From Chloroflexota bacterium (GTDB taxonomy: Bacteria; Chloroflexota; UBA5177; JANWHV01): DNA of 64,000 nucleotides. This document shows, piece after piece, positions 3,206 through 10,568 of this stretch (positions within the stretch are counted from its first letter, which is position 1; each line of letters begins with the position of its first letter). The translations under genes and the position numbers were made by a program. Under the pieces are notes generated by a model. The model made no database searches and had not been told where the DNA came from. It worked only from the letters and a program-made list of their open reading frames with translations. The stretch spans positions 9,459 through 73,458 of the forward strand of contig DATLQX010000150.1 of assembly GCA_035534995.1 (NCBI GenBank). Reading direction: 5' to 3'.

Positions 3206-3763
3206 ATGACCCAGGAACTACTTGACGATGGCGAGCGCCGCATGCAAAAAGCGATCGAGGCGTTGGTACACGATATGGCGACCGTCCGAACCGGCCGCGC
3301 GTCCCCCGCCCTGGTGGAGGGCGTGGTGGTCGAGTACTACGGCAGTCCGACCCCGCTCAACCAGCTCGCTTCGGTCAGCGCCGCCGATGCCCGATCCCTG
3401 GTGATCGCCCCGTTCGACCGGTCGGCCATCAATGACATTGACAAGGCGATCCGGAAGGCCGATCTGGGGTTCAATCCCACCAATGACGGAACGAATCTCC
3501 GCGTGGTCGTGCCGCCGCTGACCGAGGATCGCCGGCGTGAGATGGTGAAGATGCTCCACAAAAAGCTGGAGGAACACAAGGTCGCGGTTCGAAACGTGCG
3601 GCGCGAGGTCCATGACAAGCTCAAGGGCTTGGAGAAAGACAAAAGCGCCACGACCGATGAGGTTCGACGGGCTACCGAGCGCCTCCAAAAACTGACCGAT
3701 CGCAATATCCAGGAAATGGAAAGCTTGGGCGGGGCCAAGGAAGCCGAGATTCTCGCGGTCTAG
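3206..3763 (+). CDS. frr: Ribosome recycling factor
   Basis: The 185-aa product has the RTGRASPALVEGVVVEYYG and PPLTEDRRREMVK motifs. Synteny is pyrH-frr. Confidence 0.95.
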   Translation: MTQELLDDGERRMQKAIEALVHDMATVRTGRASPALVEGVVVEYYGSPTPLNQLASVSAADARSLVIAPFDRSAINDIDKAIRKADLGFNPTNDGTNLRVVVPPLTEDRRREMVKMLHKKLEEHKVAVRNVRREVHDKLKGLEKDKSATTDEVRRATERLQKLTDRNIQEMESLGGAKEAEILAV

Positions 3764-3798
3764 CACCTTACTCCCCAACTGAAGGCGGAAAAGATAGC

Positions 3799-4536
3799 GT
3801 GAGCGCCCCTCGACCGGCCGAGATCGCGGGAAAACCTACCACGGCCACCAGTGGCGTGCCCCGACATGTGGCGATCATCATGGACGGGAATGGGCGCTGG
3901 GCCCAGAGCCGCCACCGTCCGCGTCTGGAAGGTCATCGCCAGGGAGTGGACAATATCCAGCGGATCGTCCCCACCGCCATCGACCTGGGGATCGAGGTGC
4001 TTACCCTCTTCGCATTTTCCACCGAGAACTGGGGCCGCCCCACGGACGAGGTAAGCGGCCTCATGCGCCTGTTTACCTTGATCAGCCGGCGTGAAACCGC
4101 GAACCTGCACCGACAAGGGGTCCGGGTGGCGCACATCGGCTCTTTCGATGGGGTAAACAAGCTGCTGGCCCAGGCCATCCAGGATGCGGTAGCCCTGACC
4201 CGGAACAACACGCGCCTTCATCTGAATATCGCCTTCAACTACGGAGGGCGCGACGAGATCACGCGGGCGGTACGCTGCATCGTGGCCGAGGGCGTGGCGC
4301 CCGAGGAGGTGACGGAAGGACTGATCGACCGCTACCTCTCGACCGCCGGCTTGCCGGACCCTGACCTGATCCTTCGCACGGCGGGCGAGATGCGCCTCTC
4401 CAATTTCCTGATCTGGCAGGCGGCCTACAGTGAATACTACGCCAGCCCGAAACTCTGGCCGGATTTCGGGCCCGAGGATCTCCGGAAGGCCGTGGAGTCG
4501 TACGCCGGACGGCATCGCAAGTATGGCAAGCTGTAA
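3799..4536 (+). CDS. uppS: Isoprenyl transferase (undecaprenyl diphosphate synthase family)
   Basis: HVAIIMDGNGRWA, FAFSTENWGRP and RTAGEMRLSNFLIWQAAYSE are present. The start codon is GTG. Synteny is frr-uppS-cdsA. Confidence 0.93.
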   Translation: MSAPRPAEIAGKPTTATSGVPRHVAIIMDGNGRWAQSRHRPRLEGHRQGVDNIQRIVPTAIDLGIEVLTLFAFSTENWGRPTDEVSGLMRLFTLISRRETANLHRQGVRVAHIGSFDGVNKLLAQAIQDAVALTRNNTRLHLNIAFNYGGRDEITRAVRCIVAEGVAPEEVTEGLIDRYLSTAGLPDPDLILRTAGEMRLSNFLIWQAAYSEYYASPKLWPDFGPEDLRKAVESYAGRHRKYGKL

Positions 4537-4542
4537 TCGCCC

Positions 4543-5349
4543 ATGAAGGCGCGGGTGCTCAGCGCCCTGGTTCTCGCCCCAGTGATGATCGCACTGACCA
4601 TTCTGGGCGGGTTGCCCTATTTGCTGGGGATCGCGGTGATGTGCGGGGTAGGAGTCTGGGAAGCGACCGAACTTTTCACGAACTTCGGGGACGTGTCCGC
4701 GGACCCGGCTTGGCGCTACCTCGCGGTGGCGGCCTCGGTGATTGTGCTGGCTGGGGTCCAACTGGGATTCGACCACCAATATGTGGCCCAGGTAATCGCG
4801 GCCCTGGTCCTGGTGGCCAGCCTGGGAATGCTCCTGGCCGGCGGCCCACCGGCCCGACGGTTCCTGGCCTGGGCCATAGCCGCCGCGTCGATCCTCTACG
4901 TCGTCGGATTGGGATCTCACTTCCTCCTCCTCCGCGCGACTCGCCAAGGCTTGAGCTGGACCATTCTGGCCTGCGCCGTAACGTGGAGCACCGACACCGG
5001 CGCCTTCTTCGTGGGCCGCCAATTTGGACACACGGGCTTCTTCGCGGCGATTAGCGCCAAGAAAACCGCCGAGGGCGCGGCGGGCGGCCTGGCGGCCGGG
5101 ATCGTAGCCGCGATTGTCGTCGCGGCGGTGGCCGGCCTGCGCGTCCCCTGGGCCGTTATACCCTTCATCGGATTGAGCGTGAGTGCCGTGGCGCAGGGTG
5201 GCGATTTGGTGGAATCTCTCCTGAAACGGGAGGCGGGCGTGAAGGACTCCGGCACGATCATTCCGGGGCACGGCGGGGCGCTGGATCGCATTGACAGTTT
5301 GCTGTTCGCGGTAACGCTGACCTTCTACTGGCGGTTGCTCTTCCCATGA
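4543..5349 (+). CDS. cdsA: Phosphatidate cytidylyltransferase
   Basis: Polytopic membrane protein with the C-terminal signature SLLKREAGVKDSGTIIPGHGGALDRIDS. It sits between uppS and dxr. Confidence 0.87.
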   Translation: MKARVLSALVLAPVMIALTILGGLPYLLGIAVMCGVGVWEATELFTNFGDVSADPAWRYLAVAASVIVLAGVQLGFDHQYVAQVIAALVLVASLGMLLAGGPPARRFLAWAIAAASILYVVGLGSHFLLLRATRQGLSWTILACAVTWSTDTGAFFVGRQFGHTGFFAAISAKKTAEGAAGGLAAGIVAAIVVAAVAGLRVPWAVIPFIGLSVSAVAQGGDLVESLLKREAGVKDSGTIIPGHGGALDRIDSLLFAVTLTFYWRLLFP

Positions 5350-6485
5350 AACGCATCGTGATTTTGGGCAGTACTGGCTCCGTGGGGGAGCAGACCCTTG
5401 ACGTGGTGCGTCGCTTCCCCGACCGCTTGCAGGTGATCGGGTTGGCCGCCCGGCGTCAGGAGCGCCTGGCGGAACAAGCGGCGGAGTTCTCGATCCCCCA
5501 GGTGGTGATCGGCGATGGGGGTGAGCCCTCGGTCGCCTTCCCGGACGGAGTTGTGATCGGACGCGGCGCCGAGGCAATGGAGGCGCTGGCGTGCCATCCC
5601 GGGGCCGACCTCGTGGTGGTGGCGACCGTGGGGCGAGCGGGCCTCCTGGCCACCCTGGCAGCCCTCCGAGGAGGAAAGCGGGTGGGTCTCGCCAACAAGG
5701 AAGTGCTGGTAATGGCGGGTGAATTAGTCACCGGGACAGCGGCACGGCACGGGGGCGAACTGATCCCGGTGGACAGCGAGCATAGCGCGCTCTGGCAATG
5801 TCTGGTGGGCGAGGATCCGGCGACGATCAGGGAATTGGTCCTTACCGCTTCGGGCGGGGCGCTGCGCCACCGGCCGCTCGATACCCTGCACCTGGTCACT
5901 CCCGAGGAAGCGCTCCGCCATCCGACCTGGAAAATGGGCCCTAAGGTGACGATCGATTCGGCCACCTTGATGAATAAGGGCCTGGAGGTTATCGAGGCCC
6001 GCTGGCTTTTTGGCGTACCGTACGAGCGCATTCGCGTGGTCATGCATCCAACCAGCGTGGTGCATTCGCTGGTTCAGTTCGTGGATGGATCGATCAAGGC
6101 GCAAATGGGAGCCACCGACATGCGATTGCCGATCCAATATGCCCTGAGCTATCCGGAACGTTGGGAGGAGCCGGAACTTCAGGTAGACATAACAAAACTG
6201 GGCGATCTGCAATTCCTGGAGCCGAATTGGGACCGCTACCCGTGCCTGAGCCTGGCCATCGAGGCGGGGCGGCGGGGCGGCACCTATCCCGCGGCCCTGT
6301 GCGGAGCCGACGAAGTCGCGGTGGAACTTTTCAGTACCGGAGCCATCCCGTTGACCGCTATCGCCCCGCTCATCGAGTCGGTGCTGGAGACCCACAAATC
6401 CGAGCCAGAGCCCGATCTGGCCGCGATCCTGGCCGCCGACGAGGAAGGACGCCGGCGATGCGTCGAGCGGGCGCGCAGGCTCTAG
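5346..6485 (+). CDS. dxr: 1-deoxy-D-xylulose 5-phosphate reductoisomerase
   Basis: ILGSTGSVGEQTLDV, LANKEVLVMAG, PVDSEHSALWQCL and ATLMNKGLEVIEA are present. The start forms an ATGA overlap with the cdsA stop. Confidence 0.95.
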   Translation: MKRIVILGSTGSVGEQTLDVVRRFPDRLQVIGLAARRQERLAEQAAEFSIPQVVIGDGGEPSVAFPDGVVIGRGAEAMEALACHPGADLVVVATVGRAGLLATLAALRGGKRVGLANKEVLVMAGELVTGTAARHGGELIPVDSEHSALWQCLVGEDPATIRELVLTASGGALRHRPLDTLHLVTPEEALRHPTWKMGPKVTIDSATLMNKGLEVIEARWLFGVPYERIRVVMHPTSVVHSLVQFVDGSIKAQMGATDMRLPIQYALSYPERWEEPELQVDITKLGDLQFLEPNWDRYPCLSLAIEAGRRGGTYPAALCGADEVAVELFSTGAIPLTAIAPLIESVLETHKSEPEPDLAAILAADEEGRRRCVERARRL

Positions 6486-6577
6486 GCACGGCCTCGTTGG
6501 CATCGTGAGTTTGCTGCCCTGATATGCTCATAGAGCGGGTATGCCGCCTCGAACCTACTTGGAGCGCCAGGAATTTC

Positions 6578-7612
6578 ATGTACGCGCTTGTCTCCATCCT
6601 TTCCTTCATTCTCCTGCTTTTGGTTCTGGTGGGGATCCACGAGATGGGCCATTTTCTGTCCGCCCGCGCCTTTGGCATTCGAGTCTCCGAGTTCGGCTTC
6701 GGCTTCCCGCCCCGCTTATGGAGCCGGCGACGGGGCGACACCCTCTACAGCATCAACGCCATTCCCCTGGGTGGCTTCGTCCGCATGGAGGGCGAGAACG
6801 GCGATGATCTGGGGCCTGGCAGTTTCGGCGGGAAGCCTGCCTGGCAGCGGGCGATCGTCTTGGTGGCCGGCGCGGCCATGAACTTCGTGAGCGCCTTACT
6901 GCTCTTCTTCCTGGTCTACACCATCGCGCCCATTCCCCAAGATGTACCGGTGGTGGCCATGGTGCAGCCTCATTCGCCGGCCGCCGCCGCGTTGCATGTG
7001 GGTGATCGGATCACCGCGATCAACGGAGTCTCGGTGCCCACCCAGACCGACGCCGAGGATCAAATCGCCTGCACCCTGGGCAAGCCGACCATGCTCACGA
7101 TCGACCGGCACGGCGCGACCATCAAGCGAACGGTCATCCCCAGGGTTCATCCAGCACCTAACCAGGGACATATCGGGTTCCTGGGCAGCATTGTCTACAC
7201 GGGGACTGACGGCTGGAGCGCGCTCAAAAACACGCTGGGCCAGCCGGGAGTATTCGTCCAGTCAGTAGTGCACCAGTTCACGGCCCATCGTTGTTCCAGC
7301 GTAGGAGTTACCGGCCCCGTGGGGATCGCGCGGGTCACCGGTAGCGCCGCGAACGCCGTGCCGACCCTTGGGGCCGGTCCAGTGCTGTACATCGCGGCCC
7401 TGGTGAGCCTGAATCTTGCCTTCGTGAACCTGCTGCCGATTCCGGCCCTCGATGGCGGCCGGCTCCTGTTCGTACTGATCGGGGTGGTGCGACGGAGACG
7501 GGTAAGCCCCCTCCGCGAAGGGATGGCGCACCTGATTGGCATGGCGCTCCTCCTGACCCTGGTCCTGGTCGTGAGCGCGCATGACATTGGCCAGTGGCTT
7601 GGGGGAAACTAG
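6578..7612 (+). CDS. rseP: RIP metalloprotease RseP/M50 family (site-2 protease with PDZ domain)
   Basis: MYALVSILSFILLLLVLVGIHEMGHFL contains the HExxH motif in TM1. A central PDZ-like segment and the C-terminal NLLPIPALDGG motif are present. ATG 6578 is preferred over 6524. Confidence 0.85.
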   Translation: MYALVSILSFILLLLVLVGIHEMGHFLSARAFGIRVSEFGFGFPPRLWSRRRGDTLYSINAIPLGGFVRMEGENGDDLGPGSFGGKPAWQRAIVLVAGAAMNFVSALLLFFLVYTIAPIPQDVPVVAMVQPHSPAAAALHVGDRITAINGVSVPTQTDAEDQIACTLGKPTMLTIDRHGATIKRTVIPRVHPAPNQGHIGFLGSIVYTGTDGWSALKNTLGQPGVFVQSVVHQFTAHRCSSVGVTGPVGIARVTGSAANAVPTLGAGPVLYIAALVSLNLAFVNLLPIPALDGGRLLFVLIGVVRRRRVSPLREGMAHLIGMALLLTLVLVVSAHDIGQWLGGN

Positions 7613-7635
7613 CCTCCCCGAGGGAGGGAGTAACC

Positions 7636-8439
7636 ATGATCATTCGGAGAGTGGACGGAGAACTGGTGATCGCCAGACAAACCGATCACATGGCCCAGGT
7701 GGCACGGATGGCGGAGCGCTGGGGCAACACCCGCTTTCCCGCGCCGGAACATCGCGAGGAAACGATCCGGGCCGCCGGTCTGCATGATTGTGGCTGGCGG
7801 CTATGGGAAGATGCCCCTACCTTGTTCCCCGAAACCGGGCGACCACGTAACTTCACCGAGATAGAGCGTCCCATCCATGCCGCCTTCTATCGCGCGGGAG
7901 TGGAGAGCGCGGTGGGGGTAGACCCATACACCGGGCTTTTGGCTAGTCTCCACGCCAGCGTGCTCTGCGCGGGGGTCGAGGGTTGGGATCTTGAGTTGCT
8001 CACCCCGCCGGAAAACCCGGATCGGACCGCCATCGAGCGAGAGTTTATCGAGCAGCAGACGAGCCTGCAAGGCCGATTGCGATCCATGTTGGCCCTTGAA
8101 GCCCGCTATGCGGCTTCCATGGCTCCTGACCGGCTCTGGCCGGCCTATTTGCGCCTCAGAGCCTGGGATCGGCTCTCACTCTACTTCCTATCTCGGGGTC
8201 TCGGTGAGGGCGAGATCGATCACATCCCCGAAAACGACGGTGAAACCACTCTCGTTTTGCGGCAAACTGGTCAACGTTCGGCCATCGCCACGCCGTGGCC
8301 TTTCGGCCTCCCGGAGGTAACCTTTCCCGTCGTGGTCGCCCGCGTGCCGGATCGCCGGTACGAGGATGGGATGGAGTTTCTTTCTACTCTGGTACACGCC
8401 CAGCATGAGGTCTGGGACTACTCGCTGGCTCAGGGCTAA
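7636..8439 (+). CDS. DUF3891-like protein (putative metal-dependent HD-like fold), function unknown
   Basis: MIIRR...IARQTDHMAQVARMAERWGN...AAGLHDCGW matches my memory of the DUF3891 pattern (xDH...WGN...HDxGW). GAGGGAGGGAG lies upstream of ATG 7636. The start is 23 nt after the rseP stop. Confidence 0.6.
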   Translation: MIIRRVDGELVIARQTDHMAQVARMAERWGNTRFPAPEHREETIRAAGLHDCGWRLWEDAPTLFPETGRPRNFTEIERPIHAAFYRAGVESAVGVDPYTGLLASLHASVLCAGVEGWDLELLTPPENPDRTAIEREFIEQQTSLQGRLRSMLALEARYAASMAPDRLWPAYLRLRAWDRLSLYFLSRGLGEGEIDHIPENDGETTLVLRQTGQRSAIATPWPFGLPEVTFPVVVARVPDRRYEDGMEFLSTLVHAQHEVWDYSLAQG

Positions 8440-8444
8440 GCGCC

Positions 8445-9224
8445 ATGCTGAGAACCGTGCTGGCCACCCGCTACGTGACGCCCCTACGCGAGGGCGGATC
8501 GCTGCCGGCGATCATCGAGGCGGACGACGATGGCACCTACGTCCTCAAGTTCCGTGGGGCGGGCCAGGGTCAACGGGCCCTGATCGCCGAGCTGGTGGCG
8601 GGCGAGATCGGGCGGGCTCTTGGGCTGCTGGTCCCCGAGATAGTGCTGGTAGAGCTGGATCCGGTGCTGGCGCGCTCGGAACCTGATCCCGAGATCCAAG
8701 CCCTGATCGAGGCCAGCGGCGGCTTGAACCTGGCCCTTGATTACTTACCGGGATCGATTGGCTTCGATCCCCTGCTCGCCCCGCCCCCGGATCCTGATCT
8801 GGCGGCGGCGGTAGTCTGGTTTGATGCCTACGTGACCAACGTGGACCGCACGATCAAGAACCCGAATCTCCTGCTGTGGCACACGAAGGTGTGGCTCATC
8901 GATCACGGGGCCAGCCTGTTCTTTCATCACAGTTGGGATAACTACCTTCAACGCAGCCGCGCCCCATTCCCCAGAATCAAGGATCATGTACTGCTGCCCA
9001 CCGCCGCGAGTATCGAGAAGGTCGATGCTCACCTGGCGCGCCTGCTTCCGCGCGAGAAGCTAGAGGAGATCGTGGCCGCTATTCCCGAGACTTGGTTGGG
9101 TGACGAGCCGCTGTTTGCCGGCATTGGCGAGCATCGCGATGCGTACCTGACTTACCTGGTAGGCAGACTGGACGCGCCGCGCGCGTTCGCGGAGGATGCG
9201 GAACATGCGCGCGAACAACTTTGA
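8445..9224 (+). CDS. HipA-like serine/threonine kinase family protein (short, single-domain)
   Basis: A Gly-rich segment YVLKFRGAGQGQRALIAELVAGEIG, a catalytic-loop-like DAYVTNVDRTIKNPNLLLW and a Mg-loop-like WLIDHGASL resemble the HipA_C / PI3-4-kinase fold. No HipB-like HTH gene is adjacent. Confidence 0.6.
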   Translation: MLRTVLATRYVTPLREGGSLPAIIEADDDGTYVLKFRGAGQGQRALIAELVAGEIGRALGLLVPEIVLVELDPVLARSEPDPEIQALIEASGGLNLALDYLPGSIGFDPLLAPPPDPDLAAAVVWFDAYVTNVDRTIKNPNLLLWHTKVWLIDHGASLFFHHSWDNYLQRSRAPFPRIKDHVLLPTAASIEKVDAHLARLLPREKLEEIVAAIPETWLGDEPLFAGIGEHRDAYLTYLVGRLDAPRAFAEDAEHAREQL

Positions 9225-9594
9225 CTACGCGGTCATTCGCGTCATACCGCGGGTGGACCGAGGGGAGTTCTTGAACGCGGGCGTGATCCTGTTCTGCCGA
9301 CCCCAACGGTTCCTGGCGGCGGTGGTAGAACTGGACGAAGCCCGGCTGGCCGCGCTCGCGCCCGGTGCCGACCTGGTGGAAATACAGCGGCACCTCGACC
9401 TGATCCCGGCGATCTGTCGTGGAGGGGCCGGTTCCGGTCCAATCGGTGCCCTGAGCCAGGCTGAGCGCTTTCACTGGCTCGTCTCACCGCGCAGCAGCGT
9501 AATCCAGACCTCGCCGGTGCACTGTGGCCTGGCGGACGACCTGGAGGCGGCGTTGCGAGATGTGGTGGCCCGGCTGGTGGTGGTCGGTGCATAG
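9196..9594 (+). CDS. DUF3037-like protein, function unknown
   Basis: NFDYAVIRVIPRVDRGEFLNAGVILFC and ERFHWLVSPRSSVIQTS match my memory of DUF3037. The start is ATG 9196 or 9205, overlapping the kinase gene by 29 or 20 nt, which suggests translational coupling. Confidence 0.6.
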   Translation: MRNMRANNFDYAVIRVIPRVDRGEFLNAGVILFCRPQRFLAAVVELDEARLAALAPGADLVEIQRHLDLIPAICRGGAGSGPIGALSQAERFHWLVSPRSSVIQTSPVHCGLADDLEAALRDVVARLVVVGA

Positions 9595-9596
9595 GG

Positions 9597-9633
9597 AGCG
9601 GAGGTGCCCGTGAACTCCGCGGGCGCCTCCGCT
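9597..9633. terminator. GC-rich hairpin between convergent genes (candidate bidirectional terminator)
   Basis: AGCGGAGGTGCCCG (9597-9610) pairs with CGGGCGCCTCCGCT (9620-9633). That gives 13 Watson-Crick pairs plus one G-U, with a 9-nt loop. It begins 3 nt after the DUF3037-like stop and ends 17 nt before the stop of the convergent gene. There is no U-tract. Confidence 0.5.
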
Positions 9634-9649
9634 GCTCTGGCCGCGCCTC

Positions 9650-10198
9650 CTAGCCGAGGATGTTCATACTTTGCAGCATGGTAGTCGCGGCGGTCAACTC
9701 CGCCGGGTGGGTGGGGCCGCCCTTCGGCGTGCCGGCAACCACGGCGGTCATCAGGTAGAGCTTGTGGCCATGGCGGGCAGTCAACACCATGAGGCTCAAT
9801 TCCTCCCCGGTCGACGCTTTTTCAAAGGCCTGTGACGCCTCGAAGGCAATGCCGTGAATCTTTATCGCCTTGTAGGTTGGCGTGGTGACCATTTTCCCGC
9901 CACCTTTTAGGCCACCGAGATCGATTGCCTGCAATGAGACCGAGGGATGCGAGTCCGCGATTGCCACTACCCCGACGTACGCCTCGCCATCCGATGACTG
10001 CACGCTAAAGTCCGTGCCATCCTTATGGCTGTGGTCCGCCGTCCAGGCCAAGGGGTAGCTGATCGTATACCGCGAGGCTTTATTATGATACTGAGACCAT
10101 CCCGAGGCGGCATGGCTCGCCTGCGTGGCCACGAGCATGCACGGCGCGGCGAGCGCGCATCCAGCCAGAATACGCAGTCGGCGGCGTACGGACATCAT
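9650..10198 (-). CDS. Secreted hypothetical protein (N-terminal signal peptide)
   Basis: AAGGAAGG lies 8 nt upstream of ATG 10198. MMSVRRRLRILAGCALAAPCMLVATQASHA/AS looks like a Sec signal peptide with an AxA cleavage site. The mature part is beta-rich with no motif I recognise. Confidence 0.6.
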   Translation of the reverse strand: MMSVRRRLRILAGCALAAPCMLVATQASHAASGWSQYHNKASRYTISYPLAWTADHSHKDGTDFSVQSSDGEAYVGVVAIADSHPSVSLQAIDLGGLKGGGKMVTTPTYKAIKIHGIAFEASQAFEKASTGEELSLMVLTARHGHKLYLMTAVVAGTPKGGPTHPAELTAATTMLQSMNILG

Positions 10199-10310
10199 GG
10201 ATTTCACCTTCCTTGAACAGGGTCATTACACGGGGTACCCGCCTGGTTATATCCGATCAGGCGGGAACTCGCTACCACCCATTCGTGTGACCGTGTCCAG
10301 CGCGGGGCCC

Positions 10311-10568
10311 CTACTCGGAGGCGGTAAACTCATGCTCAAGTGCTGATCTTACCGCGTCTTTCGTCCCAAGCGGGATTCCAAGGACGAGGGTATCGGCGGA
10401 GGTGATGGCATCGCCGCGTTGGCTGAAGACGGTGAAGTGCCCATCTCGGTGAAGCTCCACCACCCGTTGGATGAACGGTAGCTCCGCAAGGTCATCCTGA
10501 ACCACATCCTCGAAGTCGCTTGATGCGAGAAATGCGTCCAGGGCGCCGCGAAAGTCGCTGTTAGGCAT
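10311..10568 (-). CDS. Small acidic hypothetical protein (85 aa)
   Basis: A strong GAGGAGGAAACC sequence lies immediately upstream of ATG 10568. Third codon positions are GC-rich. No family recognised. Confidence 0.5.
   Translation of the reverse strand: MPNSDFRGALDAFLASSDFEDVVQDDLAELPFIQRVVELHRDGHFTVFSQRGDAITSADTLVLGIPLGTKDAVRSALEHEFTASE

Follow-up and report, generated by a model that had tools for sequence, protein, structure and literature searches.

We analyzed a 64,000-nucleotide (nt) stretch of a Chloroflexota genome (GenBank assembly GCA_035534995.1, contig DATLQX010000150.1, positions 9,459 to 73,458 of the forward strand), called the window here, and focused on a HipA_2-family kinase gene and the DUF3037 gene that follows it. 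First in the window comes the 3' end of hslU, followed on the plus strand by rpsB, tsf, pyrH, frr, uppS, cdsA, dxr, and rseP. Downstream of rseP (stop at 7612), three more open reading frames (ORFs), all on the plus strand, were read from the sequence (Table 1). A preliminary description of this DNA had grouped the three as a cassette encoding a DUF3891-like protein, a HipA-like kinase, and a DUF3037-like protein. The layout it gave, with three co-directional ORFs, the two gaps listed in Table 1, and an overlap of 20 to 29 nt, was confirmed from the sequence. Pfam searches bore out all three family guesses: DUF3891 at E = 9e-43, HipA_2 (PF20613) at E = 2e-19 (70.2 bits; the cut-off is 27), and DUF3037 at E = 6e-41. 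A search of the three proteins against NCBIfam matched no model, and none of them had a relative in the Protein Data Bank (PDB) by sequence or profile.

Table 1. Coordinates of the features downstream of rseP in the window (aa, amino acids)
Feature	Position	Strand	Details
DUF3891 gene (ORF A)	7636..8439	+	267 aa; 23 nt past the rseP stop
HipA_2-family (PF20613) kinase gene (ORF B)	8445..9224	+	259 aa; 5 nt past ORF A; putative toxin/effector
Translational-coupling junction	9191..9224	+	GGAGG at 9191-9195 within the kinase 3' end; ATG at 9205; kinase stop TGA at 9222-9224
DUF3037 (PF11236) gene (ORF C)	9205..9594	+	129 aa, domain-only short form; putative kinase-binding neutralizer
GC-rich hairpin	9592..9639	.	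perfect 16-bp stem 9597-9612/9618-9633, extends to 21 bp; between convergent genes

The kinase also matched the PADLOC PDC-M66A profile (E = 1e-22, 78 bits). The motifs noticed earlier in this protein are real and comprise a Gly-rich loop (K35-FRGAGQG), a catalytic N-V-D134-R segment with N139/N141, and a Mg-binding I-D153-H-G. In an alignment of 18 kinases from at least eight phyla, 96 of the 259 columns were invariant, the catalytic residues included; among the invariant residues were K35, G38/G40/G42, D134, N139, N141, and D153-H154-G155. We modeled the protein with AlphaFold2 (pLDDT, 71; pTM, 0.78). The best fold match of the model was the protein kinase CtkA, a HipA-like kinase from H. 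pylori (E = 2e-4), and the further predicted matches were Fam20, PI4KII, CotH, VPS34, HipA, and a macrolide phosphotransferase. Against the HipA structure 4pu5, the model gave an E value of 0.18 and a TM-score of 0.43. The ratio of nonsynonymous to synonymous substitution rates (dN/dS) in the window lineage was 0.08 to 0.10 for the kinase and 0.06 to 0.18 for DUF3037.

The DUF3037 protein matched PADLOC PDC-M66B (E = 3e-11), covering only positions 2 to 128 of the 281 in that profile. Its most conserved feature in the alignment was an invariant E-R-F-H-W-L-V-x-P-R-S segment. The AlphaFold2 model was confident (pLDDT, 86; pTM, 0.81) and predicts a three-stranded sheet packed with helices. A Foldseek search of this model against the PDB returned no significant match (best E = 0.42), which leaves a proposed mimicry of HipS or the HipA N-subdomain by DUF3037 without support. 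Against BFVD, the model gave borderline matches to uncharacterized phage proteins (best E = 1.4e-3, TM-score 0.60). The phage proteins were A0A6J5NRF1 (125 aa), A0A516KTX2 (261 aa), and A0A516KZK0 (287 aa), with TM-scores of 0.55 to 0.60 and E values from 1e-3 to 2e-2; the latter two may be phage-encoded DUF3037 partners of the long form described below.

We scanned one genome per species (185,579 species genomes) and obtained at least 594 confirmed matches. All locus comparisons used the best 80 of these, so the identities that we report are somewhat inflated. By tblastn with the window proteins, a short DUF3037 ORF lay directly 3' of the kinase gene, on the same strand, in all 80 loci, which represent at least 10 phyla. 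The loci came from Chloroflexota, Acidobacteriota, Cyanobacteria, Abditibacteriaceae, Gamma- and Betaproteobacteria, Myxococcota, Rubrobacteraceae, Bacteroidota/Ignavibacteria, and Nitrospirota. Two truncated matches aside, the partner was 127 to 173 aa long in all of them. The two ORFs overlapped at every locus, and the overlap was 23 nt in 54 of the 80, as counted by a script that picks whichever start codon is closest to the expected place and so favors a constant overlap. Pairwise identities of the kinases correlated with those of their DUF3037 partners (r = 0.67). In the window, the DUF3037 gene could start at ATG 9196, giving 132 aa and a 29-nt overlap, or at ATG 9205, which gives a 20-nt overlap and is the start chosen by public gene calls. 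The 20-nt overlap is likely the one in use, since the GGAGG Shine-Dalgarno sequence stands 9 nt before ATG 9205.

Apparent kinase-DUF3037 fusions were present among the 50%-cluster representatives (P0345, P0313, P0386, P0390, P0392, P0393, and P0431), each a single ORF of 378 to 429 aa. Both domain matches in these proteins were partial, and we did not use them as evidence of interaction. The two genes overlap in different reading frames, and the fusions are therefore most likely frameshift or assembly artifacts.

The preliminary description had proposed genomic linkage as a check. Linkage held for the kinase and DUF3037 but failed for DUF3891. DUF3891, RseP, and Dxr were found by tblastn near the pair in 1 of the 80 loci only, namely L001, an 89%-identical Chloroflexota metagenome-assembled genome (MAG) of the window's own lineage with the same synteny. 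All four DUF3891 homologs that we located (58 to 68% identity) stood in differing contexts lacking HipA_2 and DUF3037. All-against-all clustering of the flanking ORFs of the 80 loci gave no recurrent third gene family near the pair. Exact-protein look-ups showed that three related Chloroflexota lineages, the window's own and two with kinases at 89% and 84% identity to that of the window, keep the whole gene order from rpsB to a downstream H+-PPase gene. Vertical inheritance of this entire region would by itself keep DUF3891 linked to the pair within one lineage. The spacer between DUF3891 and the kinase gene varies in length: the window has 5 nt (8440-8444), the 89% lineage 75 nt (L001, 4926-5000), and the 84% lineage 197 nt (L084, 7805-8000). 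In the relatives, transcription of the pair may start from a promoter of its own, and in the window the pair may be read through from DUF3891. All three genes are under purifying selection as judged by dN/dS, and the synonymous divergence (dS) of the pair in the window lineage equals that of dxr, rseP, and other neighbors. In L084, a TTGACA sequence lies about 30 nt before the kinase ATG. Taken together, the conserved unit consists of two genes, kinase and DUF3037, and DUF3891 is an independently distributed neighbor. For annotation, the lesson is to keep DUF3891 out of the HipA_2/DUF3037 system.

The metal-site-like pattern reported earlier for the DUF3891 protein was borne out by the invariant residues H18, H50-D51, H106, and D178. 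Given this invariance, the sequence is plausibly that of an HD-like hydrolase. The H...HD...H...D pattern resembles that of HD-domain metal-dependent phosphohydrolases, from which the protein differs in that its Pfam HD match over residues 17 to 57 is weak (E = 0.039; 14.7 bits, under the cut-off of 22) and, as noted above, in having no PDB relative.

The preliminary description knew of no functional account of a kinase/DUF3037 pairing. The pairing is in fact already described, as the PADLOC phage defense candidate PDC-M66, as DS-6/HipAD, and as a module of Retron-Sda1, and its kinase toxin/neutralizer antiphage system was first reported in 2025. In the Retron-Sda1 study, DUF3037 showed a strong association with HipA-like kinases; deletion of the kinase abolished defense against phage Bas51, deletion of DUF3037 was toxic, and the authors regarded the pair as a stand-alone system of kinase toxin and DUF3037 neutralizer (PMC12548924). 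DefensePredictor led to the validation of DS-6 in E. coli, since renamed HipAD, in which the kinase mutation D139A abolished defense and for which AlphaFold3 predicts an A-B complex (PMC13092281). Like DS-6/HipAD and the Sda1 module, the window has a HipA_2 kinase gene followed by an overlapping, co-directional DUF3037 gene, with no HipB-like helix-turn-helix (HTH) antitoxin. HipAD was reportedly also found independently by Brenes and Laub in 2025.

The window kinase shares with DS-6/HipAD the N-x-D-R...N...I-D-H core. D134 aligns with the Asp of an NADR motif in a Klebsiella phage kinase; with the second Met of that kinase taken as the start (249 aa), this Asp is residue 139. The DUF3037 partner of this phage kinase is 84% identical to DS-6B. 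D134 would thus correspond to DS-6 D139, as judged through the close Klebsiella phage homolog and not from DS-6A itself. K35, E49, D134, N141, and D153 are invariant across the window-type kinases, which we call the short form, and the DS-6-like kinases, which we call the long form. In Klebsiella phage Kp4864-1 (L082, 2121-2843), the DS-6-like pair lies directly 3' of a gene for a CI-like repressor (HTH plus S24 peptidase-like, 240 aa), a position typical of prophage-encoded defense cargo.

The differences between the two forms are substantial. DS-6B has 275 aa and combines DUF3037 with a DUF1829-like domain (HHpred), whereas the window partner is DUF3037 only. Long-form partners from P. syringae and the Klebsiella phage run to 270 to 280 aa with no detectable C-terminal domain family, and a C-terminal domain of roughly 150 aa is missing from the window protein. 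Likewise, although both PDC-M66 hidden Markov models match the window pair, the C-terminal half of the 281-position M66B profile has no counterpart in the window partner. The window kinase scores 78 bits with PDC-M66A compared to 42 to 50 bits for DS-6-like kinases. With Pfam HipA_2, a family centered on the long form, the order is reversed (70 bits for the window, 261 to 266 bits for long-form kinases), while with Pfam DUF3037 the window partner reaches 140 bits and long-form partners reach 82 to 91 bits. The KFRGAGQG Gly-rich loop is present in the window kinase and absent from the long form, the short-form kinase has the longer C terminus, and the window kinase is 24 to 28% identical to long-form kinases. 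Long forms reside on prophages and, with insertion sequence (IS) elements on either side, on plasmids; the similar long pair of P. syringae plasmids is an example. Short-form pairs are chromosomal, have host-like GC content, and are far more conserved. With short partners in all 80 relatives, we assign the window pair on these sequence features to a distinct subfamily of the HipA_2/DUF3037 system, the short form with DUF3037 as the entire partner.

What the pair shares with canonical HipBA and HipBST is a predicted kinase fold of the HipA/CtkA/PI3-4K branch and, by analogy, a proposed logic in which a growth-arresting kinase is held in check by a small protein from the same operon. Kinases of the canonical systems target GltX and TrpS. 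However, the window kinase has no Pfam match to HipA_C (PF07804) or Couple_hipA and is 259 aa long, compared with 440 aa for canonical HipA. HipBA has the HTH protein HipB encoded upstream, whereas in the window the upstream gene is DUF3891 and the putative antitoxin gene is downstream. As noted in the preliminary description, the cassette has no HTH gene: none of the ORFs within 7613-9650 encodes one, and the nearest is a MarR gene at about 11.7 to 12.5 kb that is part of the flanking synteny. The DUF3037 model, with no significant match among solved structures, has none to HipB or HipS.

Our best explanation, to which we assign a probability of about 0.6, is that 8445-9594 is a self-contained two-gene kinase/neutralizer module in which the kinase would arrest growth and DUF3037 would inhibit the kinase. 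A toxin-antitoxin or phage defense role, suggested earlier for the kinase and DUF3037, likewise appears to be the best reading by homology with the long forms. The HipA_2 kinase would be a growth-arresting toxin of Ser/Thr type that phosphorylates an essential, conserved cellular target. DUF3037, made by translational coupling from the same mRNA, would bind the kinase and keep it inactive until phage infection or stress releases it and growth stops. The sequence comparisons establish the two-gene unit, its coupling, the intact catalytic residues, the purifying selection, and the independence of DUF3891; the toxicity, the neutralization, the trigger, the target, and any role in defense or persistence are all proposed here by analogy with the systems described above. 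In this Chloroflexota lineage, the pair would have landed behind the rpsB...rseP-DUF3891 cluster and then been inherited vertically with it. Because the partner has no variable C-terminal domain (DNA-binding or DUF1829-like), any autoregulation or sensing through such a domain would be absent from the short form. This suggests that DUF3037 is the kinase-binding core and that the C-terminal domains of the long form add DNA binding or sensing, which fits with long-form partners carrying different C-terminal domains.

Several observations weigh against a kinase/neutralizer module. The validated pairs are long forms, and the short form is known from sequence alone; the window kinase is only about 26% identical to the Klebsiella phage kinase, the close DS-6 homolog, and identity between DUF3037 of the window and DS-6B is 21%. 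Between phyla, the short pair is more conserved than RpsB, PyrH, and Frr of the same operon. Comparing Chloroflexota with Gammaproteobacteria, identities were 62 to 67% for the kinase and 54 to 57% for DUF3037, against 52% for RpsB, 50% for PyrH, 50% for Frr, 46% for UppS, 41% for Dxr, 30 to 36% for RseP, and 32% for CdsA. This comparison holds at the phylum level only, as the pair (window 8445-9594) was set against Xanthomonadales-type gammaproteobacteria (L011, L035, L037, L062, and L070) and the housekeeping proteins against E. coli (L101). The kinase phylogeny is largely phylum coherent, with a same-phylum nearest neighbor for 62 of 78 kinases where chance predicts 13.7, and the GC content of the pair tracks that of its flanks and host from 0.34 to 0.74 (r = 0.96). 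A search of 2.9 million viral contigs returned neither short-form kinases nor short-form partners, and 50,697 phage genomes held no short form and a single long-form match (Klebsiella). The contexts of the short pair are mostly ordinary chromosomal ones, and close relatives occur in only a few plasmid records. The window pair sits inside a housekeeping operon with synteny kept across three lineages, while other copies stand near glycan or sugar metabolism genes or STAND/LuxR regulators. Among the contexts inspected, one was clearly mobile: on a soil metagenome contig (L099, 6991-7992), the kinase gene starts 9 nt past the end of a gene of the phage integrase family. Such a profile is atypical for a mobile defense or toxin-antitoxin gene. 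The pair could instead be an ancient, slow-evolving physiological signaling module, in which the kinase and DUF3037, as its dedicated regulator or substrate, would act on a universally conserved component, for example in dormancy or translation control in soil and freshwater bacteria. The 96 invariant kinase columns, the plateau of mean kinase identity (68% within phyla versus 64% between them), and a dS equal to that of the neighboring genes in the window lineage all favor this account, as do the cross-phylum conservation, phylum coherence, host-adjusted GC, stable synteny, housekeeping or metabolic contexts, and absence from the viral and phage sequences searched. It is nevertheless a serious but unlikely alternative. 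The pair is not universal (at least 594 confirmed matches among the 185,579 species genomes), and its contexts differ between genera, which makes for an accessory-gene pattern. Besides the copy behind the integrase gene, another on an 11.3-Mb Chloroflexia MAG chromosome (L096, 9158-11285) is followed directly 3', on the opposite strand, by genes for an AAA_15/AAA_21 (SMC_N-type) ATPase and then DUF4058, with a DDE transposase about 4 kb upstream of the pair; this region may be a small defense island. Moreover, the homologous long forms are demonstrated toxin/neutralizer defense systems, and both PADLOC candidate-defense profiles match the pair. More speculatively, and rather improbably in our view, the short pair might be a separate ancient chromosomal class in at least 10 phyla that controls growth arrest or dormancy, with its housekeeping-grade constraint arising from docking onto a universal target such as the translation machinery. 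The mobile long-form antiphage systems would then be offshoots with an added C-terminal sensor or DNA-binding domain.

Alignment of the kinase profile with E. coli HipA by hhalign gave a probability of 0.8%, which is not significant, and this too counts against a kinase/neutralizer module. With sequence similarity to E. coli HipA undetectable, "HipA-like" is a curated, fold-level label (Pfam/KINtaro). The kinase may have a small-molecule substrate, and the HipA_2 protein would then be a small-molecule or lipid kinase of the PI4K, aminoglycoside phosphotransferase, or CotH type, with DUF3037 as an accessory subunit and no toxin role. In keeping with this, PI4KII-alpha, VPS34, CotH, Fam20, and macrolide phosphotransferase give TM-scores similar to that of HipA, and a Bacteroides ortholog has a weak Pfam PI3_PI4_kinase match (E = 0.0055); the undetectable similarity to E. 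coli HipA points the same way. We consider a small-molecule kinase quite improbable, however, given that the top fold match is a protein kinase, that the homologous long forms act as toxins, and that the pair lacks a consistently linked metabolic gene. In addition, Pfam clan CL0016 contains both PF20613 and PF07804, and KINtaro merges these two into one kinase family (bioRxiv 10.64898/2026.09.18.752743). The earlier proposal of a functional three-gene cassette, with an HD-like DUF3891 hydrolase that reverses or reads the kinase modification, now seems very improbable. The short gap between DUF3891 and the kinase gene in the window, the gene order common to the three lineages, the invariant metal-site-like pattern, and the purifying selection on all three genes speak for it. 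However, 79 of the 80 loci lack DUF3891 beside the pair and have no recurrent third gene in its place, the four DUF3891 homologs located occur without either partner, the spacer varies by lineage, and conservation in a single lineage is what vertical inheritance of the region would produce. A hydrolase acting on the kinase modification thus finds no comparative support.

A kinase/DUF3037 pairing is no longer new, having been validated as an antiphage kinase/neutralizer in 2025-26, and the systems tested were all long forms from mobile elements. The window presents the minimal form, a kinase plus a bare DUF3037 domain, so that DUF3037 is probably the part that binds the kinase, with the C-terminal domains as additions to it. 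Although the DUF3037 model has high confidence, no solved structure corresponds to it, and a compact complex of 259 plus 129 aa would be suited to structural work. Should the extreme conservation stem from docking onto a target that is itself conserved, this family could help to identify what HipA_2 kinases act on, and it could also be used to test whether some "defense" kinases began as physiological growth regulators. With its minimal architecture, its DUF3037 fold, and its unexplained housekeeping-grade conservation, the short subfamily is a good experimental entry point.

The hairpin that closes the unit was confirmed and is stronger than the 14 bp first reported (Table 1). It folds at -49.3 kcal/mol (z = -5.7), and none of 200 shuffled sequences reached equal stability. 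It has no T-tract and therefore went unflagged in the terminator scan; its probable role is bidirectional termination. The promoter and terminator scan of 6400-10400 yielded nothing informative, and neither Rfam nor tRNA scans of the full window gave matches. The window also contains long antisense ORFs, including one of 605 aa (3760-5577, minus strand) opposite uppS, cdsA, and dxr and several of 100 to 260 aa opposite real genes. These are not genes but the stop-poor antisense frames usual in a genome of 63% GC. The convergent gene facing the hairpin (9650-10198, minus strand) encodes 182 aa in public records, with a signal-peptide-like N-terminal segment, and an 85-aa ORF lies next to it (about 10311-10568, minus strand). 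Neither product has a Pfam match, and both ORFs are kept in all three related lineages, with 79 to 87% identity for the 182-aa protein.

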